Positions 929-54,125 of a stretch of DNA of 64,000 nt are shown piece after piece. Location of the stretch: NCBI RefSeq assembly GCF_963921235.1, contig NC_086097.1:172858001-172922000 (forward strand), in the 5' to 3' direction. Each line of letters starts with the position of its first letter. Within the stretch, counting starts at the first letter, position 1. The notes beneath the pieces are model-generated. The model searched no databases. It saw only the letters and a list, made by a program, of their open reading frames with translations, and was not told the DNA's origin. The position numbers and the translations under genes are program-made. Origin of the DNA: Mobula hypostoma (taxonomy: Eukaryota).

Positions 929-3094
929 GAAGATATCCTGAAATGGGAAGGTGAACAGCTAGAGGTCGTGGTATATTTTGGTACAAATGACATAGGTAGG
1001 AAAAGAGGGTAGGTCCTGGAAACAGACAACAGGGAGTTAGGAAGGAAGTTGAGAAGCAGGACCTCAAAGTAATCTTGGGATTACTGCCTGTGCCACGTGA
1101 CAGTGAGTATGGGAATAGAGTGATGTAGAGGATAAATGTGTGGCTGAGGGATTGGAGCAGGGGGCAGGGATTCAGATTTCTGGATCATTGGGACCTCTTT
1201 TGGGGCAGGCGTGACCTGTACAAAAAAGATGGGTTGTACTTGAATCCAAGGGGGACCAATATCCTGGCGGGGAGGTTTGCTAAGGCTGTTGAGGAGAGTT
1301 TATACTAAAATTGCTGGGGGGTGGGAACCAAACTGAAGAGACGGAGAAAGGAGTGGTTGGCTCACAAATTGAGAAAGCTTGTAGACAGTGAGAGTGGGAG
1401 GATAGGCAGCTGATAGAGAAGGGATCCGCTCAGGCTGATGGTTTGAGATGTGTCTATTTTAATGTGAAGAATCATGAACAAAGCGGATGACCTTAGAGTG
1501 CAGATCAGTACTTGGAGCTATGATGTTGTGGCCATTACAGAGACTTGGATGGGTCAGGGCAGGAATGGCTACTTCGAGTGCCAGACTTTTCCGAAAGGAC
1601 AGAGAGGGAGACAAAAGAGGTGGGGGCGTGGCACTGCTGATCAGAGATAATGTCACGGCTGCAGAAAATGAGCAAGTCATGAAGAGATTGCTGAGTCTCT
1701 GTGGGTGGAAGTTAGGAACAGGAAGGGGTCAAAAACTCTACTGGGTGTTTGCTATAGACCACCCAATAGTAACAGGGACATCGAGGAGCAGATAGGGAGA
1801 CAGATTCTGGAAAGATGCAATAATATTAGGGTTGTTGTGGGAGATTTTAATTTCCCAAAATTGATTGGCATCTCCCCGGAGCAAGGGGTTTAGATGGGGT
1901 GGAGTTTGTTAGGTGTGTTCAGTAAGGATTCTTGACGCAATATGTAGATAACCCTACGAGAGGAGAGGCTGTATTTGATCTGATATTGGGAAATGAACCT
2001 CATCAGGTGTCAGCTCTCTCAGTAGGAGAGCATTCTGGAGATAGTGATCACAATTCTACCTCCTTTACCATAGCATTGGAGAGGGATAGAAACAGACACA
2101 TGAGGAAAGAGTTTAATTGGAGTAAGGGGAAGTATAAGGCTATCAGGCAGGAACTTGGAAGCATAAATTAGGAACAGATGTTCTCAGAGAAATGTACAGC
2201 AGAAATGTGGCAAATGTTCAGAGGATATTTGTGTGGTGTTCTGCATAGATATGTTACAATGAGACAGGGAAAGGATGGTAGGGTACAGGAACCATGGTGT
2301 ACAAAGGCTGTTGAAAATCTAGTCAAGAAGAAAAGAAAAGCTTACAAAAGGTTCAAAAAACTAAGTAATGATAGAGATCTAGAAAATTATAAGACTAGCA
2401 GGAAGGAGTTTAAGAATGAAATTAGGAGAACCAGAAGGGGCCATGAGAAGGCCGTGGCAAGCAGCATTAAGGAATACCACAAGGCATTCAACAAGAATAT
2501 GAAGAGCAAGAGGATAAGACGTGAGAGAATAAAATCAATCAAGTGTTTCAGTGGAAGAGTGTGTATGGAGCTGGAGGAGATAGTGGAGGTTACTTAATGA
2601 TACTTTGCTTCAGTATTCACTACGGAAAAGGACCTTGGCGATTGTAGGATGACTTACAGCAGACTGAAAAGCTTGAGCATATAGACACTAAGAAGGAGGA
2701 TGTGCTGGAGCTTTTGGAAAACACCAAGTTGGATAAGTCACCGGGACCGGACGAGATATAACCTAGGCTACCGTGGGAAGCGAGGGAGGAGATTGCTGAG
2801 CCTCTTGCGATGATATTTGCATCATCAATGGGGACGGAAGAGGTTCTGGAGGATTAGAGGGTTGCGGATGTTGTGCCCTTCTTCAAGGAAGGGAGTGGAG
2901 ATAGACTAGAAAATTATAGACCAGTGAGTCTTACATCAGTGGTTGGTAGGTTGATAGAGAAGATCCTGAGATGCAGGATTTATGAACATTTGGAGAGGCA
3001 TGATATGATTAGGAATAGTCAGCATGGCTTTCTCAAAGGTAGGTTATGCCTTACGAGCCTGTTGAAATTTTTTGAGGATGTGACTCAACACATT
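929..3094 (+). mobile_element. CR1 LINE (outer element, 5' part): ORF1 SGNH-esterase C-terminus, ORF2 APE endonuclease and start of RT, decayed
   Basis: VVVYFGTNDIG (esterase block III), then RGGGVALL, GVCYRPPNS, VVGDFNFP, GDSDHN (APE) and NYRPVSLTSVVG, SQHGF (RT). Many stops and frameshifts. Breaks at EDVTQHI. Confidence 0.9.
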
Positions 3095-6000
3095 AACATA
3101 GAACATTGTATAGTACAGCACAGTACAGGCCCTTTGGCCCACTATGTTGTGCCGACCCTCAAACCCTGCCTCCCATATAAGCCCCCACCTTAGATGCCTC
3201 CATGTACCTGTCTAGTAGTCTCTTAAACTTCACTAGTGTATCTGCCTCCACCACTGACTCAGGCAGTGCATTCCACGCACCAACCACTCTCTGAGTAAAA
3301 AACCTTCCTCTAATATCCCCCTTGAACTTCCCACCCTTTACGTTAAAGCCATGTCCTCTTGTATTGAACAGTGGTGCCCTGGGGAAGAGGTGCTGGCTAT
3401 CCACTCTATCTATTCCTCTTATTATCTTGTACACCTCTATCATGTCTCCTCTCATCCTCCTTCTCTCCAAAGAGTAAAGCCCTAGCTCTCTTAATCTCTC
3501 ATCATAATGCATACTCTCTAAACCAGGCAGCATTCTGGTAAATCTCCTCTGTACACTTTCCAATGCTTCCACATCCTTCCTATAGTGAGGTGACCAGAAC
3601 TGGACACAGTACTCCAAGTGTGGCCTAACCAGAGTTTTATAGAGCTGCATCACTACATCGCGACTCTTAAACTCTATCCCTCGACTTATGAAAGCTAACA
3701 CCCCATAAGCTTTCTTACCTACCCTATCCACCTGTGAGGCAACTTTCAGGGATCTGTGGACATGTACCCCCAGATCCCCTCCACACTACCAAGTATCCTG
3801 CCATTTACTTTGTACTCTGCCTTGAAGTTTGTCCTTCCAAAGTGTACCACCTCACACTTCTCCGGGTTGAACTCCATCTGCCATTTCTCAGCCCACTTCT
3901 GCATCCTATCAATGTCTCTCTGCAATCTTTGACAATCCTCTACACTATCTACAACACCACCAACCTTTGTGCCATCTGCAAACTTGCCAACCCGCCCTTC
4001 TACCCCCACATCCAGATCGTTAATAAAAATCACGAAAAGTAGAGGTCCCAGACCAGATCCTTGTGGGACACCACGAGTCACAACCCTCCAATCCGAACGT
4101 ACTCCCTCCACCATGACCCTCTGCCTTCTGCAGGCAAGCCAATTCTGAATCCACCTGGCCAAACTTCGCTGGATCCCATGCCTTCTGACTTTCTGAATAA
4201 GCCTACCATGTGGAACCTTGTCAAATGCCTTACTAAAATCCACATAGATCACATCTACTGCACTACCCTCATTTATATGCCTGGTCACCTCCTCAAAGCA
4301 CTCTATCAGGCTTGTTAGACACAATCTGCCCTTCACAAAGCCATGCTTCCTGTCCCTGATCAGACCATGATTCTCTAAATGCCCAGAGATCCTATCTCTA
4401 GGAATCTTTTCCAACAGCTTTCCCACCACAGACGTAAGGCTCACTGGTCTATAATTACCTGGACTATCCCTATTACCTTTTTTGAACAAGTGGACAACAT
4501 TAGCCTCCCTCCAATCCTCCGGTACCATTCCCGTGGACAACGAGGACATAAAGATCCTAGCCAGAGGCTCAGCATTCTCTTCCCTCACCTCATGGAGCAG
4601 CCTGGGGAATATTCCGTCAGGCCCCAGGGACTTATCCATCTTAATGTATTTTAACAACTCCAACACCTCCTCTTCCTTAATATCAATGTGCTCCAGAACA
4701 TCAACCTCACTCATATTGTCCTCATCGTCATCAAGTTCCCTCTCATTGGTGAATACCGAAGAGAAGTATTCATTGAGGACCTCGCTCTCTTCCACAGCCT
4801 CCAGGCACATCTTCTCACCTTTATCTCTAATCGGTCCTCCCTTCACTCCTGTCATCCTTTTTTTCTTCACATATTTGAAGAATGCCTTGGGGTTTTCCTT
4901 TACCCTACTCGCCAAGACCTTCTCATGCCCCCTTCTTGCTCTTTTCAGCCCCCTCTTAAGTTCCTTTCTTGCTTCCCTATATTCCTCAATAGACCCATCT
5001 GATCCTTGCTTCCTAAACCTCATGTATGCTGCCTTCTTCCACCTGACTAGATTTTCCACCTCACTTGTCACCCATGGTTCCATCACCCTACCATTCTTTA
5101 TCTTCCTCACCGGGACATATTTATCCCTAACATCCTGCAAGAGATCTGTAAACATCGACCACATGTCCATAGTACATTTCCCTGCAAAAACATCATCCCA
5201 ATTCATACCCGCAAGTTCTAGCCTTATAGCCTCATAATTTGCCCTTCCTCAATTAAAAATTTTCCTGTCCTCCCTGATTCTATCCTTTTCCATGATAATG
5301 CTAAAGGCCAGGGAGCGGTGGTCACTGTCCCCCAGATGCTCACCCACTGAGAGATCTGTGACCTGACCCGGTTCATTACCTAGTACTAGATCTAGTATGG
5401 CATTCCCCTTGGTTGGCCTGTCCACATACTGTGACAGGAATCCATCCTGGACACACTTAACAAATTCTGCCCCATCTAAACCCTTGGAACTAATCAGGTG
5501 CCAATCAATATTAGGGAAGTTAAAGTCACCCATGATAACAACCCTGTTATTTTTGCACCTTTCCAAAATCTGCCTCCCAATCTGCTCCTCTGTATCTCTG
5601 CTGCTACCAGGGGGCCTATAGAATACCCCCAGTAGAGTAACTGCTCCCTTCCTGTTCCTGACTTCCACCCATATTGACTCAAAAGAGGATCCTGCCACAT
5701 TACCCACCCTTTCTGTAGCTGTAATAGTATCCCTGACCAGTAATGCCACCCCTCCTCCCCTTTTTCCACCCTCCCTATCCCTTTTAAAGCACTGAAATCC
5801 AGGAATATTGAGAATCCATTCCTGCCCTGGTGCCAGCCAAGTCTCTGTAATGGCCACTACATCATAATTCCATGTATGTATCCAAGCTCTCAGTTCATCA
5901 CCTTTGTTCCTGATGCTTCTTGCATTGAGGTACACACACTTCAGCCCTTCTACCTTACTGTCTTTACACCGTTTATTCTGCTTCTCTTTCCTCAAAGCCT

Positions 6001-6396
6001 CTCTATACGTTAGATCTGGCTTTACTCCATGCACTTCTTTCACTGCTCTATCGCTCTGGGTCCCATCCCCCTTGCAAATTAGTTTAAACCCTCCCGAACC
6101 ATGCGAGCAAACCTACCTGCAAGGATATTGCTCCCCCTCGAGTTCAGGTGCAACCCATCCAATCTATACAGGTCCCACCTTCCCCAGAAGAGATCTCAAT
6201 GATCCAAAAATCTAAAACCCTTCCCCTGCACCAACCCCTCAGCCACGCATTCAACTGCCATCTCCTCCAATTCTTACCATCACTGTCACGTAGCACTGGC
6301 AGCAATCCTGAGAAGGCCACCTTTGAGGTCCTGTTCTTCAGCCTTCTGCCTACTTCTCGAAACTCACACTTCAGGACCTCATCCCTCTTCCTGCCC
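3095..6396 (-). mobile_element. CR1 LINE inserted antisense into the outer CR1; near-complete ORF2 plus ORF1 C-terminus
   Basis: Minus-strand ORFs 5249..6043 (APE: YLNARSI, AITETWL, MGDFNFP, GDSDH), 3746..5206 (RT: YRPVSLTS, DFSKAFDKV, GVPQGS, KFAD) and 3159..3731 (C-terminus). 3' tail (TTCTATGTT) at about 3095-3105. ORF1 DGLHLN motif near 6143-6160. Confidence 0.93.
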
Positions 6397-7596
6397 TTGA
6401 TGAAGGAAAAGCAGTAGATGTCGTGTATATGGATTTCAGCAAGGCATTTGATAAGGTACTCCATGCCAGGCTTACTGAGAAAGTAAGGAGGCATGGGATC
6501 CAAGGGGACCTTGCTTTGTGCATCTAGAATTGGCTTGCCCACAGAAGGCAAAGAGTGGTTGTAGTCGGGTCATATTCTGCATGGAGGTTGGTGACCAGTG
6601 GTGTGCCTCAGGGATCTGTTCTAGGATGCCATCTCTTTGTGATTTTTATAAATGACCTGGATGAGGAAGTGGAGGAATGGGTTAGTAAATTTGCTGATGA
6701 CACAAAGTTTGGGGGTGTTGTGGATAGTGTGGAGGGCTGTCAGAAGTTACAGCGGGACATTAATAGGATGCAAAACTGGGCTGAGAAGTGGCAGATGGAG
6801 TTCAACCCAGATAAGTACGAGGTGGTTCGTTTTGGTAGGTCAAATATGATGGCAGAATATAGTATTAATGGTAAAACTCTTGGCAGTGTGGAGTATCGGG
6901 GATCTTGGGGCCCAAGTCTATAGGACAATCAAAGCTGCTGCACAGGTTGACTCTGTAGATAAGTAGACATACGGTGCATTGGCCTTCATCAACCGTGGGA
7001 TTGAGTTCAAGAGCCAGACGGTAATATTATAGCTATATAGGACCATGGTCAGACCCCACTTGGAGTACTGTGCTTAGTTCTGGTCACCTCACTGCAGGAA
7101 GGATGTGGAAACTATTGAAAGGGTGCAGAAGAGATTTACAAGGATGTTGCCTGGATTGGGGAGCATGCCTTATGAGAATAGGTTGAGTGAACTTGGCCTT
7201 TTCTCCTTGGAGCGACGGAGGATGAGAAGTGACCTGATAGAAGTGTTTCAGATAATGAGAGGCATTGATTGTGTGGATAGTCAGAGGCTTTTTCCCCAGG
7301 CTGAGACGGCTATCACGAGAGGGCACAGTTTTAATGTGCTTGGAAGTAGGTACAGAGGGAATGTCAGGGGTAAGTTTTTTTTGCAGAGAGTGGTGAGTAT
7401 GTGGAATGGGCTGCCAGCGACTGTGGTGGAAGCGGGTACAATAGGGTCTTTTAAGAGACTCCTGGATAGGTACACATAGCTTAGAAAAACAGAGGGCTAT
7501 GGGTAACCCTTGGTAATTTCTAAAGTAAGTACATGTTCAGCACAGCTTTGCGGGCCGAAGGGCCTGTGTTGTGCTGTAGGTTTTCTATGTTTCTAT
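6397..7596 (+). mobile_element. CR1 LINE (outer element, 3' part)
   Basis: Resumes with DEGKAVDVVYMDFSKAFDKV, directly continuing EDVTQHI at 3094. Contains GVPQGSVLG and KFADDTK, and ends in a TTTCTATGTTTCTAT tail. Confidence 0.92.
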
Positions 7597-20088: not shown

Positions 20089-21069
20089 GTCAAGGGATGA
20101 CAAGAAGAATGACAGAAACAGAGATGACTAGTATCCATTCCTCTGCCTTCAATTTCTGCGATGGATGACTCATTCAACTGCGACTTGTTGGTATGTCTTT
20201 TTACTTTATAGGAATTGTACCTGTGTTTTAGAAATCATTTGTAATTTGGAAATATTTAATAAGATAGAAATCCTTTATGAGTTGTAAAAGCACTTCAAGA
20301 ATCTTACCTAAATTTAAATATGTATCACTAAAAATAAATGAATTGTGTTTAAACTGCTTCACTAGCTGGAAGTAATAGTGGGTATTGGCAGCTAAACTCG
20401 CCATGGAGGATAAACAGGGAAGTGATCCAGCTTTTGAAAAGTAGGTGGCTACAGTATAACCTCCCATTAGTGAGGTTACCTGTAGCCACGCACATCGGAT
20501 AGGGCTTAAGATCTTTATTTGAGTTCATAACCTTGCAGACAGCAAACCCATTACAGTCACTTAATTTTCTTTCATTTCTCGGCTTGAAACGTTGACTATA
20601 CTTTCCATCGATGTTGCCTGTCCTGCTGAGTTCCTGCAGCATTCTGTGTGTGTTGCCATTTTCTTTCATTACAACAGTGCATTGAGATAGTACAATGGAA
20701 AACAATAACGGAATTAATAGCAAGGTGTTACAGTTACAGTAAAAGTGAAGTGTAGGCAGACAATAAGGTACAAGGCTATAGCAAGGTAGATTGCAGGGTT
20801 AAGAGTCAATCGTATTGGACTACGGAACCATTCAATAACCTTACAACAGAAAGATCCTTGAGCCTGATTGTATGTGCTTTCAGACTTTTGTATCTTCTGC
20901 CCAAACAGAGGGGGTTGAAGAGAAGATTTCTGGGTAGGGAAGGGCCTTTGATTCTGTTGACTTCTTCACTGAGGCAGCAAGAAGAGTAAAACCGAGCCCA
21001 TGGATGACAGACCAGTTTCTGTGATGTGCTGAGCTGTGTTTAATTCTCTGCAGTTTCTTGTGGCCATAG

Positions 21070-26005: not shown

Positions 26006-26199
26006 ACATTCGGGAAAAATGAAAGATCTTGAGGTATGGACAATTGAAAGCATGCTAGCAATCGTGAAACAGATAAGATGGGGAGTGAACAGGTGATCCC
26101 ATTTCTGGTCACCTGTTCACTCCCCATTTTATCGGTTTCACGATTGCTAGTATGCTTTCAGTTGTCCATATCTCAAGATCTGTCATTTTCCCGTAATGT
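26006..26199 (+). repeat. Long imperfect inverted repeat (93-nt arms, 8-nt loop); candidate hairpin RNA
   Basis: 26006-26098 is the reverse complement of 26107-26199 apart from about 7 substitutions and a small register shift at the base. No TE motif recognised. Confidence 0.9.
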
Positions 26200-27250
26200 A
26201 TCTCTGAAGTGTTACTTATATGGAATGTAATTGGCAAGAGGAATGTATGTATCGGTGCCATACGGACATATGTGTTGGGCAAGACACTGTGCATCATAAG
26301 AACAGCGCACAACCAACCCAATGCCAATTCTGGAGATTCCTTCTCTGGCCTAGACTGGATGAGTGGGATCATAATAGCAAGGACATTAGGCCCATTGAGC
26401 TAGTTCTGGATTTAGTGCAATCGATCCAGTTGCATGCACTGGCTTTCTCTTCTTGGTCCTGTATTTTTGTACCTCTTTGGATTCTTTGCCAACCACTTTA
26501 AATCTGTGTGGTAATCAAGTGATCCAAGGTTGGAGACAGGATGGGGACAAAATCAACTGACCATAATTTTGCACAACCGTGAAGCCCATCCAGCACATGA
26601 CTTCCTCTATCAACTTCTCACCACCTTTGTTTCAAATCAACAGAGGTTCTTCAACAGATACTTTCGTTGAAACTTGCTGGCAATATTTCAAGTTATTGAG
26701 ACTATTAATTAGTATGACATACTATGACCAACCGAAGGACTAACGACTGTGCAGAGTCCAAAACATTGATACAGTGACAGGGTCAAGTACGGTGTCACAT
26801 AACTCTGTCAATACGGACAACAGAAAGAGCCGGAAGTATAGCTGTTCAGTTTGGAGGAGGTGGATCAAGGTTTGTGAGGCAGTGAGATCAAGTCATGGAC
26901 CAAACTTGAAGGGAAATTGGCTCAATAGGTAAAGGAAAAAAAGATGGGAAATGGTCAAAGGGCAGGGTTCATTAGCTGGGACAGAATAGTCCACATCTGA
27001 AGGATTGTGTGCAGTTCTGGTGTCCTATTACAGGAAGAATGTGGAAGTTTCAGAAAGATTGCAGAAGAGATTAACCAGGATGTTGCATGGATTAGAAAGT
27101 ATTAATTATAAGGAGTGGTTGGACAAAAATTGTTTTCCCTGGAGTGCCAGAGGCTGAGAGAAGATGTTAAAGGAGTTTATAAAATTATAAGAGGAAGAGA
27201 GTAAGTAGTTTGAATTTCTCAGGGTAGAAGTGTCAAGTACTGGAGGGCAC

Positions 27251-27471
27251 CACACATAAAATGCTGGAGGAACTCAGCGGGCCAGGCAGCACCCATGAAA
27301 AAGAGTAAACAGTCAATGTTTCGGACTGAAATATGGAAGTCCTGATGAAAGGGCTCGGCCCGAAATGTTGACTGTTTGCTCTTTTCCATAGATGCTGCCT
27401 GGCCTGCTGAGTTCCTCCAGTATTTTGCGTGTATTTATCTTGCTTTTCAGCATCTGCAGACTTTTTCGTGG
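27251..27471 (+). mobile_element. Short Penelope-derived fold-back insertion with hammerhead motif, inside a CR1 fragment (about 26990-27700)
   Basis: 16-bp TSD AAGTACTGGAGGGCAC (27235-27250) / AAGTACTAGAGGGCAC (27472-27487). The inverted arm 27251-27330 is complementary to about 27355-27432. PLE-type tail CAGCATCTGCAGA. Confidence 0.85.
27338..27373 (+). ncRNA. Minimal type I hammerhead ribozyme motif (Penelope-associated, slightly decayed)
   Basis: AGTC-CTGATGA-AA-GGGC(TCG)GCCC-GAAA-TGTT-GACT. Helix I is AGTC/GACT, followed by core CUGAUGA, helix II, GAAA and the NUH triplet GUU. Confidence 0.6.
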
Positions 27472-27842
27472 AAGTACTAGAGGGCACAGCTTTAAGGTGA
27501 GAGGAAGGAAAATTAAAGGAGATGTCCAAAATGTGTTGCCGGGGTGCTGGTGGAAGCAAATATGATCAAAGCATTTAAGAAGCTTTTAAACAGGCACATG
27601 AATGTACAGGAGTATGAACTACATGCAAGCAAGGGATTAGTTTAATTTGTCTTCGTAGTCAGCAGAGACATTGTGGGCTGAATGACCCATTACTGTTCAG
27701 TGCTCCACATCCCAAAGAGCAGGAGGTGATTCTGTATTTCACTGCTAAGGGCAGTGTAATGGACAATTAATGGAAATGCTTTTTAAATGCCCTTGATTGG
27801 GGAGCCAGCAAGCAGCGAGTTCCAGATGAGCTCAATGCCTTC

Positions 27843-40094: not shown

Positions 40095-40810
40095 ACTCCC
40101 TCACCTCCATTCAGGGCCACAGACAGTCCTTCCAGGTGAGGCAATACTAAATATGCAAGTCTCTTGGAGTCATGTACTGCATCTAGTGCCCTTCGATGTG
40201 GCTTCCTCTATATTGCTGAGAACCAACATAAATTAGGGGGCCGCTTTGTCGAGCAACTCTGCTCCATCCGCCTGAAGTGAAATTTCTCAGTGGCCAACCA
40301 TTCTAATTCCTATCTCCAATACCATTCTGACATGTCAGTCCATGGCTCCCTCTTCTGCCATGATGAGACCACTCTCAGGGTGGAAGAGCAACACCTCATA
40401 TTCTGTCACGAATATCAAATTTTCCTTCCAGTAATGGTTTCTCTTTTTCTTTTCCCCTCCCACTTCGCTCATATTCTATTCCCTACTCTGTACTCTTACC
40501 TGTTCTCATCTGTCTATCACTTCTCCTTGGTGTCCCTTCTTCTTTCTTTTCTCCTATGGTTCACTTCCTTCTCCTATCAGATTCCGTCTTCTCCAGCCCT
40601 TGACTTTTCCCACTCACCTGGCTTCAGCTATCTCCATCTAGCTTGTCCTCTTTCCCGTTCTCCCACCTTTTTATTCTGGTGTCTACCCCCTCCTTTCTAG
40701 TCCTGATGAAGGATCTTGGCCTGAAACATCAACTGTTTCATGTATATTCATTTTTCCATAGATGTTGCCTGACCTGCTGAGTTCTTCCAGATTTTGTGTG
40801 TGTTGCTTTG
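40095..40810 (+). mobile_element. Penelope-like element 3' part: decayed GIY-YIG endonuclease plus pseudo-LTR with hammerhead motif
   Basis: Broken frames give SIQG..QSFQVRQ, GVMYCI, RCGFLYIAE (YIG-like), GRFVEQL, VANH, EEQHLIF. Pyrimidine-rich 3' UTR, then AGTC-CTGATGA-AGG..CCT-GAAACATC at 40699-40735. Confidence 0.85.
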
Positions 40811-41585: not shown

Positions 41586-42047
41586 ACTCAACACACACAA
41601 AATGCTGGTGGAACGCAGCAGGCAAGGCAGCATCTATAGGAAGAAGTACAGTCAATATTTCGGGTCCAGACCCTTTGTCAGGACTAACGGTAAAAAGAGA
41701 TAGTAAGAGATTTGAAAGCGGAAGGGGCAGGGGGAGACCTGAAATGATAGGAGAAGACAGGAGGGGGAAGGATGAAGCCAACAGCTGGGAAGTTGATTGG
41801 CAAAAGGGAAACAAGGCTGGAGAAGGGGAAGTATCATAGGATGGAAGGCCTTGGAAGAAAGAAAGGGAGAGGGGAGCACCAGAGGAAGATGGAGAACAGA
41901 CAAGGAGTTACTGTTAAGAGGGAAAGAGAGAAAAAAAAACTAAACCTCAAACTAAAGGCGTAGCCATGGGCACCCATATGGGTCCCAGCTATGCCAGCCT
42001 TTTTGTTGGCTATGTGGAACAGTCCATGTTCCAAGCCTATACTGGTA
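41586..42047. mobile_element. Penelope-like element: inverted pseudo-LTR (minus, 41586-41940) joined to an RT fragment (plus, 41941-42047)
   Basis: The minus strand carries AGTC-CTGACAA-AGGGTCTGGACCC-GAAA (mutated hammerhead) and the PLE tail. The plus strand encodes QTKGVAMGTHMGPSYASLFVGYVEQSMF, a Penelope RT motif. Confidence 0.85.
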
Positions 42048-50733: not shown

Positions 50734-50904
50734 CTAGCAGACTGATTCCCAGCCGGGACAATCCCTGCTTCAGACCTTCCCCCAGGCTGTCTGGAAGCTG
50801 CCTGCGCCATTCCTCCTGCCGGGTATAGTGCTCTTCGTCCAGGGACAACCGATCCATGTTCCTGGCCAGACTTGTAGCTAGATTAGTGATCGATGTCAGA
50901 GTAC
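50734..50904 (-). CDS. VPS13B: VPS13B coding exon
   Basis: GTLTSITNLATSLARNMDRLSLDEEHYTRQEEWRRQLPDSLGEGLKQGLSRLGISLL. CAG acceptor, GTATGG donor. 171 nt, phase 1 to 1. Confidence 0.97.
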
Positions 50905-51415
50905 CTGAATAAAAATACACAAAATGCCATGAGACGATAGCATTGTATTCAATCAAAGTATCTGTTCCTATAATCAGGTACTTCTTCCTACATTTCATTA
51001 ACTAATAGGTGTTCTGGGAAGTATTGAAGTCATAGAATTGTTTTCTTTCTCTTTTTACTTCATACAACAACATATTCAAAGTTTAAAGTTCAAAATAAAT
51101 TTATTATCAAAGTACATTTATGTCACCTTATACAACCCTGAGATTCTATAACGACACAAATAAAGGTTTGTTAGCATTTAACCCATAACCTTCTAAATCT
51201 TTACTGTTATGGGCCAGGCATGGACAAATAGGACTAGTTTGGCTGGATATCTTGGTGGGCATGGGCAGTTGGGCCGAAGGACCTGTTTACATGCCAGCTG
51301 TCTCCATGACTCTAAATAAGATTGCATTTGAACAAATATGATCACATTCCAAGTGTGTGGAGATTACATGCAAAGTACAGTAAAACTCAATTAAACTGGT
51401 TTATTGAGGATTATG

Positions 51416-51634
51416 CAAACAACAGGAATTCTGCAGATGCTGGAAATTCAAGCAACACACATCAAAGTTGCTGGTGAACGCAGCAGGCCAGGCAGCATCT
51501 ATAGGAAGAGGCGCAGTCGACGTTTCAGGCCGAGACCCTTCGTCACGAAGGGTCTCGGCCTGAAACGTCGACTGCGCCTCTTCCTATAGATGCTGCCTGG
51601 CCTGCTGCGTTCACCAGCAACTTTGATGTGTGTT
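51416..51634 (-). mobile_element. Very young Penelope-derived palindromic insertion in a VPS13B intron
   Basis: Perfect 90-bp arms (51454-51543 and 51545-51634) with a 1-nt spacer. 17-bp TSD GTTTATTGAGGATTATG at 51399-51415 and 51632-51648, overlapping the arm end by 3 nt. PLE 3' tail at 51416-51453. Confidence 0.92.
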
Positions 51635-51885
51635 TATTGAGGATTATGGTAGTGGTGGACCAGCAGATTCTTCCGATTACCAGATCTTATTTCAATTTAT
51701 ACTTCAATATTCCTTTGAGTTACTATTTTTTTCTATGCTGTTTGGTACAGTAGCACAAATTTTCCAGTAAGTCCATTAAATTTCAAAGCAGTGTGGAAAA
51801 CAGAATCATGTGAGATTAAAGGGGGTGCTGAAACTGAGACCTTTATAAGTTTAAAGGGAGCACAAGAAATGGTGTCCTAAGGAGA

Positions 51886-52049
51886 TTAAAGAGAGAACAG
51901 GAACTGGGGCCCCAGTGAGTTTAAATAGAGCACAGGAACTGGGGCCCCAGTGAGCTTAAATAGAGCACAGGAACTGGGGACCCAGTGAGTTTAAATAGAG
52001 CACAGGAACTGGGGACCCAGTGAGTTTAAAGAGAGCACAGGAACTGGGA
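51886..52049. repeat. Minisatellite, about 4.7 units of 35 bp
   Basis: Unit TTAAA(T/G)AGAGCACAGGAACTGGGG(C/A)CCCAGTGAG(T/C) at 51886, 51921, 51956, 51991 and 52026, with degenerate units upstream. Confidence 0.95.
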
Positions 52050-52846
52050 TTTCCATCTATTAGAGTGAGTTTTAAGATAAGAGTTCTTTGTGCTAGAAGG
52101 AGCACAAGAGAAAGCACCCAGTGAGCCGCATGCCTAATCACTGGGACTTCCAAACAAAGGGACAGTATATTACCAGAGCTCTACTGTTAGAATGGTTTAT
52201 CAAGTTGGAAGTAGAGGTAATATAATCTGGCACATCTAGCAGATACAGTAAATTAAAATTCTGAATGCATCAGCTGTTGACTGACAGGTAGAAATCTCAT
52301 CACATTAGCAGCCAGAATTTGGAACACAAAAGTAAACTACGCTGACAATCTAGTGCTGATCTAGAACACTTCATCATTGGAAGTGCAATATTGTATAAGG
52401 AACCTTAAATTCAGTTCCATATGCTTCCTCTGATGAATATTGAAGACATTATAACACTAAAAGAAAATTTATGTGGCCAAAACCAATATCTGTCCCTCAT
52501 TTAACATATGTTTTTACATAAAGGGTGGTACCTATATGGAATAGGCTGCAAGGGGAAATGGTTACAATAACAACTTTTTAAAGTCACTTACAAAGGTGTA
52601 TGGATTGGAAAGGTTTAGAGAGATGTGGGTCAAATGCTGGCAAGTGGGGCTAGCTTGGATGGGAAAACTTGGTCAGCATGGGCCATTTCGGCTAAAGGGC
52701 CTGGTTCCATATTTTATAACTCTGTGACTACAACTTTATTACAACAAAAGCATAAATGGCATTGACACATGTAAGAGTAAGGCACATTGAATGCAAAGAT
52801 AGACATGAACCAATTGTGTTTCCTCTGTGTATTTTTATAAGATATA

Positions 52847-53397
52847 GACTTATTGGCCACTTTATTAGGTACACCTGTACACCTGCTTGTTAATGCAAGG
52901 ATCTAATCAGCTAATCATATGATAGCAACTCAATGCATAAAAGCATGCAGACATGGTCAAGAGGTTCAGTTGCTGCAGAGCAAACATCAGAATGGAATAG
53001 AGAAGAAATGTGATCTAAGTGACTTTGACTGTGGAGTGATTGTTGGTACTGGATGGGATAGTCTGAGAAACACTGATCTCCTGGGATTTTCACACTCAGT
53101 GGTCTCTGGAGCTTACAGAGAATGGTGCAAAAAACATCTAGTGAATAGCAGTTCTATGGGCAAAACTACCTTGTTAATGAGAGAGGTCAGAAGAGAATGG
53201 CCAGACTGGTTCAAGATGACAGGAAGAGGACAGTAACTCAAATAACCACGCACTACAACAGTGGAGTGCAGAAGAGCATTTCTGAACACACATCGAACCT
53301 GAAGTGGATGGGCAACAGCAGCAGACGATCATGAACATACACTCAGTGGCCACTTTATTAGGTACCCCCTATACCTAATAAAGTGGCCACTGAGTGT
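52847..53397 (+). mobile_element. Tc1-like non-autonomous element with terminal TIR hairpin
   Basis: TIR (CACTCAG)TGGCCACTTTATTAGGTAC. Transposase N-terminus KKCDLSDFDCGVIVG..DLLGFSHSVVSGAYREWC. An internal TIR copy at 53339-53364 pairs with the right TIR at 53372-53397. Confidence 0.85.
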
Positions 53398-53948
53398 GTT
53401 TTAAAATTTAAAAAAACTTTGGTTGTTATCATATCTTTCATCTTGTGAGTTTGTTGTGCAGCAATGGTAACCGTTCCACACTGAACCAGTGACCATTCCT
53501 TGGGTAGTACTACATTGGACTCAAAAAGCTTTGTAATACCCAACAATTCTTAAATGTTTGGATGGGAGGTGTTTGGAGGGATATGGTCCGTGTGCAGGTC
53601 AGTGGGACTAGGCAGAAAATGGTTCGGCACAGCCAAGAAGGGCCAAAAGGCCTGTTTCTGTGCTGTAGTTTCTATGGTTCTATGGTTCTATGGTATCTTT
53701 ATCAAGGGAAAGAAATTGTCGACATTTTCAGTCATGATGCAGGGTTTCCTTCTCACCCCACATTAAACTAGTGTTAAATTATCATTTTCTTCTGTTTTAT
53801 ACAGCATGACAAACTGTAAGAATTGTAGGATAATGTACCATGGGACTGAATGTCAAAACCAGAGTACAATGTACAGCCACTGTAATATAACACACTTACT
53901 GGTAGCCACTGGGGGTGAATACCCAGCAATGGTGAGAAAAAGTATTAC

Positions 53949-54125
53949 CTTTGGAAATGTGTTTTACAAAAGAAGTTGTTCCCCTGGAGACTCCACTGAC
54001 AAAGGCTCCTGGACCACGGGTCAATCCCTCATACGGAAGCCGGAAAAAGTCTGCTATCCCATTCCCTATGCTTCGCACCAAATTAGCTGGACTTCCAAGG
54101 ATTTCCAGAGAGCCAACGACCCAGC
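53949..54125 (-). CDS. VPS13B: VPS13B coding exon
   Basis: GWVVGSLEILGSPANLVRSIGNGIADFFRLPYEGLTRGPGAFVSGVSRGTTSFVKHISK. TAG acceptor, GTAAT donor. 177 nt, phase 1 to 1. Confidence 0.97.

Follow-up and report, generated by a model that had tools for sequence, protein, structure and literature searches.

What leaves an exact palindrome between two copies of a direct repeat in the intron of a gene, and does such a structure matter to the gene that carries it? The locus that raises this question, at 51399-51648 of a 64-kb window (by which we mean the whole stretch of DNA that was analysed), had been placed in an intron of VPS13B by a first-pass annotation, and this location is borne out by protein comparisons. 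The large exon has VPS13B as its best match (E 1.4e-97, among 41 matches), tblastn with the VPS13B protein P0001 gives nine ordered blocks that are collinear on the minus strand, and the leads of an atlas search with the large exon are all of the VPS13/ATG2/Hobbit type. A Pfam search with seven fragments of the window gave no real match. According to the tblastn blocks, the host intron measures 3,044 nt (50905..53948, minus strand) and is bounded upstream of the insert by an exon at 53949..54125 (minus strand; tblastn 88% to P0001) and downstream by an exon at 50734..50904 (minus strand; tblastn 93% to P0001, with splice motifs), leaving 511 nt between the insert and the intron acceptor and 2,317 nt between the insert and the donor. 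The same intron holds a hairpin whose 26-bp stem is perfect and whose loop measures 7 nt (53339-53397), seemingly made of Tc1/mariner-type MITE ends fused to each other, a further short repeat of very high copy number (51075-51146) that is common to all four runs examined, and a 35-bp tandem array of about seven units (51810-52054) located 160 nt from the right-hand target-site duplication (TSD) of the insert.

The palindrome consists of two arms of 90 nt each (51454-51543 and 51545-51634), which are exact reverse complements of each other around the single nucleotide C51544, where the assembly reads CTTCGTCACGAAG. Each arm contains six CpGs, all intact, and the comparison of the arms thus confirms the exact arms, the 1-nt spacer and the unmutated CpGs that had been described from the letters. 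The flanking 17-bp direct repeat, GTTTATTGAGGATTATG, is exact and occurs only twice when both strands of the 64-kb window are searched (51399..51415 and 51632..51648, plus strand); a chance match of 17 nt at one given place has a probability of 2e-10. Between the two copies lie 216 inserted nucleotides, namely an unpaired tail, a sense arm and an inverted arm. The 38-nt tail (51416..51453, minus strand), which is absent from the earlier annotation, is a 3'-terminal extension of a Penelope-like element (PLE) that is carried by the sense arm only and is seen as well, again on one side, in a further copy at 27k; the X9 loose ends before 51415/51416 mark the outer end of the element family. It is followed by the sense arm, a pseudo-LTR (pLTR) end that is 5'-truncated within the hammerhead CUGACGA box (51454..51545, minus strand, the same strand as the VPS13B pre-mRNA), and by a tail-less inverted arm that stands head-to-head with it (51545..51631, plus strand). 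As the final 3 nt of the right arm (GTT, 51632-51634) are letters of the TSD, whose first 3 nt therefore match the inner end of the element too, the inserted part of the inverted arm is 87 nt long and is followed by a 3-nt microhomology; A51545 fits both arms, which amounts to a 1-nt microhomology at the centre. The minus (pre-mRNA) strand is predicted to fold into a single long stem of -204.2 kcal/mol (z -28.7), and 0 of 200 shuffles were as stable.

Four of 24 sequencing runs were compared: X1 and X9 from organism A (X1 is possibly the assembly's own sample and hence not independent, X9 comes from another study and may be RNA), X5 from organism B, a close relative, and X11 from an outgroup. 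In X5, one contig of 594 nt covers 51108-51400 and 51634-51850 at consecutive positions, with 293 and 217 letters on either side of a skip of 233 nt. As this skip equals 216 + 17, that is, the element and one TSD copy, X5 represents the empty site. The palindrome in the VPS13B intron is thus flanked by a true 17-bp TSD. Over the flanks, organisms A and B differ at 6 of 663 positions (~0.9%). In X1, contigs of 326 nt (51113-51438) and 329 nt (beginning at 51612) show no differences from the assembly; the difference counts of X1 are flagged as incomplete, and 5% of the sampled words are missing from this run. The element enters these contigs in opposite orientations from the two unique flanks, each contig including no more than about 23 letters of it, which is under the 31-letter bridging threshold. 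X9 and X11 have no coverage at the junctions, and none of the contigs listed for the four runs spans the 1-nt centre, which is read from the assembly. The unique flanks, the TSD and the presence of both outer-junction orientations in X1 exclude a fold-back chimera of the whole element.

The arm matches five other places in the window, two of which link it to PLEs. The region 40097..40808 (plus strand) is a degenerate related PLE 3' end with a GIY-YIG remnant, a pyrimidine-rich UTR, a hammerhead and the inner end, in which the decayed GIY-YIG end (40097-40406) lies upstream of the hammerhead copy on the same strand. Its endonuclease fragment matches P0042 with an E value of 1.8e-25 and gave 32 matches in an exhaustive protein search; a word-indexed protein search gave six candidates, none of them significant. 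Two PLE fragments of the window had no match in Pfam, and four of ten homologues had Pfam GIY-YIG matches, which are weak and below the cut-off. The window's nearest relative (83% over 93 nt), at 41587..42046 (minus strand), comprises a tail-less arm and UTR and is joined to an inverted PLE reverse transcriptase (RT) fragment (41966-42046, plus strand); its UTR and the inverted RT motif match P0070. We note that 41587-42046 as a whole has the appearance of a non-overlapping, twin-priming-like inversion. The proteins nearest to the neighbouring element fragment come from rays, a skate and sharks, which suggests a ray-like cartilaginous fish as the host. By eye, P0042 and P0070 carry a CX2-5CxxC linker motif before the GIY-YIG domain and a CCHH motif inside the endonuclease, both of which are given for Neptune and Nematis (PMC8557442). 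These motifs are seen in the homologues, the window's own endonuclease fragment beginning after the linker, and it would take an RT phylogeny to separate Neptune from Nematis, the RT sequence in the window amounting to 27 aa. From the endonuclease end at 40k and the P0070 match at 41k we conclude that, as judged from sequence, the arms at 51k are the hammerhead-bearing pLTR end of a Neptune-like PLE, its EN+ character being read from the relatives in the window. The Penelope origin and the inverted partial pLTR of the first-pass annotation are upheld through these relatives and through P0042 and P0070, and the locus has the anatomy of an EN+ PLE insertion, with an inverted 5'-truncated pLTR placed head-to-head, a 38-nt tail at one end and a TSD with an empty site. 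Family copies were also sought in public collections, where a first scan gave none and later scans gave 32 and 8 loci, all 40 of which were discarded as chance matches of 20-33 nt. Pieces of PLE endonuclease are contained in three further proteins, P0043, P0055 and P0071 (a RecQ5 isoform, a DUF4518 protein and an RTP3-like protein from ray, skate and shark), and may represent exonisation or gene-model errors.

The symmetry axis falls inside the CUGANGA box of the hammerhead. Neither strand keeps an intact core, just as had been proposed, the CTGACGA of the family appearing as GTGACGA on the minus strand and as GTCACGA on the plus strand. Behind 51545, the loose ends of X1, X5 and X9 go on with GGACT; the family thus continues there, and its core is AGTC-CTGACGA. 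In the remnant of the minimal hammerhead (51515..51546, minus strand; compared by eye with PMC4209133), C3 is read as G and the 5' strand of stem I is missing, stem II, GAAAC and GUC/GACU being kept. The insert hence has an incomplete minimal hammerhead, and its whole region is locked in the long stem; in an Anolis ribozyme, the change C3G abolishes cleavage (PMC11167929). By eye, the family hammerhead has all parts, that is, CUGANGA, stem II, GAAA, a palindromic stem III and stem I, and CUGANGA is intact in three of eight aligned arms (27k sense, 38k and 40k). The 27k sense arm retains the form CUGAUGA. Stems I and II form in the 27k copy, with a z score of only -1.4. A search of the window with Rfam gave no matches at gathering scores and, at E values up to 10, hairpin-type matches below threshold, with no hammerhead among them. 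In both long copies, a pyrimidine tract and TAG stand directly before the hammerhead TCCTGA (40690-40700 and 41686-41700). Both arms of the insert end 3-4 nt after the position that this tract and AG have in the 40k and 41k copies. One might speculate, by analogy with the Penelope element of D. virilis, that the tract and AG are a splice acceptor near the 5' end of the RNA; in D. virilis, an intron ends at helix I (PMC4209133).

How routine is such a structure? An older copy at 27235..27487 (plus strand) has the same architecture, with a tail-less inverted arm and a sense arm that carries hammerhead and tail. Its 16-bp TSD has one mismatch, its arms are 86% alike, and it is apparently inserted in the 3' end of what we take to be a CR1-like repeat. 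A single-arm, tail-less copy at 20564-20672 ends at the inner site and has its own TSD of 13-15 nt, and all inverted arms (51k and 27k) and single-arm copies (20k, 40k and 41k) end at family position 35-38. No convincing TSD was found at the features at 26k, 38k, 40k, 41k and 53k. Typical PLEs are accompanied by an adjacent inverted 5'-truncated copy and have a one-sided tail of 30-40 bp (PMC8557442), and inverted pLTRs in a head-to-head arrangement, with TSDs and a palindrome at the junction, have been described (PMC3846280). The inverted palindromic shape is routine for the PLE family, and the 1-nt centre is the sole somewhat unusual trait of the insertion at 51399-51648. Among the joints of the family in the contigs, 15 of 482 were listed, and 14 of these are of the inverted type, one of them symmetric and 13 asymmetric by 28-87 nt; some could be library fold-backs. 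One arm ends within 51535-51545 in 13 of the 14 listed inverted joints; an inversion hot spot at the CUGA box was nevertheless not counted, as the compared stretch holds the family only to 51545 and 15 of 482 joints are listed. Other repeats of inverted form in the window are a palindrome at 26006-26199, with arms of 91 nt that are 90% complementary, a 12-nt spacer, no TSD and no match to the PLE arm, and a long imperfect inverted repeat at 1000-7500 (arms 71-81% alike), formed by opposed LINE copies with RT frames. Three other identities of the 51k structure were considered and rejected. A MITE or foldback DNA transposon is at odds with the 38-nt unpaired tail at one end and with TSDs of 13-17 bp that vary between copies. 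Non-LTR retrozymes are head-to-tail tandem monomers with hammerheads (bioRxiv 10.64898/2026.07.22.740005), whereas the copies at 51k are single and head-to-head. Lastly, a miRNA precursor finds its only echo in Rfam miRNA matches that are all below the gathering scores and reflect the hairpin as such.

We conclude that the palindrome is very probably an insertion of a Neptune-like PLE pLTR end that took place in the lineage of organism A after its split from organism B, in the course of a subfamily burst. A diagnostic variant, C at 51512, mirrored at 51576, is present on both arms of the insert. At 51512, the non-T share of the contig depth is 32% in X1, 40% in X9 and 2% in X5. For the variant class, the depth ratio X1/X5 reaches 26 at one and 19 at the other of the mirrored positions, compared with 1.15-1.36 for the common allele (six of eight positions tabulated) and 1.26 for a control repeat; contig depth does not equal copy number, and X9 agrees with X1 on the variant share. 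These data support a burst of the subfamily in the lineage of organism A since the split. A second variant, G to A at 51491, has shares of 15% and 11% in organism A versus 4% in organism B and possibly marks another post-split subfamily, distinct from the one at the 51k locus. As the outgroup X11 has no coverage at the site, the polarity of the insertion is given by the TSD and the variant shares. With 0.45% change on each lineage, 180 nt stay free of substitutions with a probability of 0.44, which falls to 0.29 or 0.17 when CpGs are given a 5- or 10-fold higher mutation rate. Arms without a mismatch are thus compatible with any age up to the split, and the claim of a very recent insertion stands in so far as the insertion post-dates a recent species split; the arms, with probabilities of 0.17-0.44, fail to show more. 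Similarly, the suggestion that the family is probably still active agrees with the variant shares as far as a burst since the split is concerned, and activity today goes beyond them. The X1 contigs cross both junctions without branching at the TSD, a pattern more in keeping with homozygosity than with a newly arisen polymorphism, bearing in mind that contig building can prune branches.

With regard to how the palindrome was made, we lean moderately towards a mechanism in which the two strands of the target each primed reverse transcription at one of the two start sites of the element. The GIY-YIG endonuclease would cut the two strands 17 nt apart, as suggested by the TSD, and each free 3' end would prime reverse transcription on the element RNA, a reaction known in vitro for another PLE (PMC11167929). 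Priming at the outer start site would lead to a cDNA with arm and tail, and priming at the inner start site, aided by the 3-nt microhomology, would give the tail-less arm. Both cDNAs would stop at the hammerhead CUGACGA box and would afterwards be joined head-to-head through the one shared base and filled in. Both arms continue for about 27 nt beyond the position at which the ribozyme is predicted to cut, which argues that the ribozyme was not used. We prefer priming from both ends because family position 35-38, at which the single-arm copies end, is also the start of the inverted arm; a start at an RT start site is not predicted by a fold-back, and the 20k copy, with its own TSD there, marks the inner site as a 3' end in its own right. 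In vitro, the PLE protein of Anolis can nick and extend the two strands of its target, and for this element a pair of RNA start sites on either side of the tail, a dimer model and the use of uncleaved RNA have been reported (PMC11167929). The product is probably a dead, non-coding intronic palindrome that is neutral or nearly so. More tentatively, and with rather less assurance than for this locus, we propose that inverted pLTRs of PLEs are generally built by two-strand priming at the sites that bound the tail, with cDNAs ending near the 5' edge of the hammerhead. In a search of the literature outside subscription papers, no printed statement of a two-end-priming model for inverted pLTRs was found.

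It is also conceivable, though in our view less likely, that the first cDNA folded back at the CUGACGA box, served as its own template over 87 nt and was joined to the second target end via GTT; in a variant of this reading, an antisense RNA primes itself, as has been proposed for rotifer Penelopes. The 1-nt centre is easier to produce by such a fold-back than by two-end priming, the microhomology of 3 nt at the right junction fits it as well, and it is close to the published reading of junction palindromes as products of self-priming (PMC3846280). It also accounts more simply for the absence of any difference between the arms, although identical arms are expected in either case when one subfamily dominates. 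Among the 15 listed joints, an exactly symmetric one is found at 51502 in contigs of X1, X5 and X11; this joint, however, coincides with a naturally occurring palindrome of 6 nt and may have arisen as a fold-back artefact of the library, and the asymmetry of the other 13 of the 14 listed inverted joints speaks against a fold-back. Moreover, self-priming leaves unexplained why the arm stops at the inner site, where TSD-flanked single-arm copies end. Priming of both target strands remains the reading we prefer, by a moderate margin.

A different possibility concerns the centre only, in that the inversion is real and the 1-nt centre is due to an assembly artefact or to later trimming or conversion, the true junction being longer or asymmetric. 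The lack of a listed contig across the centre, the words missing from X1 and the general difficulty of assembling palindromes (PMC8557442) leave some room for this. We regard it as improbable, given that the flanks, the TSD and the outer-junction orientations in X1 exclude a chimera of the whole element and that a base fitting both arms, such as A51545, is what a natural joint is expected to have. Palindromes promote slippage between direct repeats, and an older, shared insertion could thus have been deleted precisely in organism B by TSD slippage, with the arms kept alike by conversion. The outgroup X11 has no coverage at this site, which leaves some room for such a history, yet the variant of the insert is common in organism A and makes up only 2% of the depth in organism B, and the TSD copies are identical and the CpGs all intact, which makes a shared origin very unlikely. 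The same low standing is given to a retained, functional hairpin that would regulate VPS13B via ADAR editing, small RNAs or splicing. In its favour, the pre-mRNA strand is predicted to form a stem of some 89 bp that contains 40 adenosines and lies 511 nt from the acceptor, and the site is probably homozygous in X1. On the other hand, the hairpin is absent from the sister species, such hairpins recur as a by-product (27k copy, contig joints), the intron contains a second perfect hairpin (53339-53397), and the Rfam miRNA matches carry no more than the hairpin itself. The pyrimidine-AG stretch of the element was not copied either, so that no obvious new splice acceptor came with the insert. Some ADAR editing of the predicted stem is plausible on general grounds, the Dicer cleavage and DNA cruciform that the first-pass annotation also raised are hypothetical, and a neutral by-product is the default reading of the insert in VPS13B.

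As a single locus, the insert carries little weight, since it is a defunct intronic fragment whose architecture is already in the literature. What it offers is a clean specimen, with a proven empty site, base-exact outer junctions and a lineage-specific subfamily marker, and it points to a recent PLE burst in a cartilaginous fish. The formation of inverted pLTRs has been described as unresolved (PMC8557442), a question that might be brought closer to an answer by collecting such young insertions across the genome. A young, very abundant subfamily together with empty sites in a sister species about 1% away makes two-end priming and self-priming testable on many insertions.

Several known systems resemble the structure at 51k. 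In the 5' inversions of L1 that arise by twin priming, two primers from one staggered cut lead to an inversion with a TSD and microhomology at the joint. L1 twin priming inverts a non-overlapping part of one RNA, whereas at 51k one stretch of 87 nt occurs in two copies; in this respect, the 41k copy is more L1-like. The Poseidon element of Anolis carolinensis shares two RT starts that bound the tail, an AT-rich target, an uncleaved RNA template and the C3G change (PMC11167929). It belongs to the Poseidon clade, while the element at 51k is Neptune-like, and in the text consulted and three supplementary text files that study does not link two-strand extension to inverted pLTRs. The minimal hammerheads of PMC4209133 have, as here, a short stem I, an unpaired base before stem II and a palindromic AC/GU for stem III. 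Dual motifs on opposite strands lie 100-700 bp apart in that work, which names no shark or ray family in the text consulted; those at 51k overlap at the symmetry axis and are both dead. Closest are the EN+ PLE insertions of PMC8557442 and PMC3846280, which share the head-to-head inverted pLTR, the tail at one end, the TSD and the junction palindrome. Compared with these, the insert at 51k has no ORF between its arms (216 nt in total), its TSD is 17 bp long instead of the 8-10 bp of the rotifer examples, and its junction is symmetric to 1 nt and lies inside the hammerhead core.
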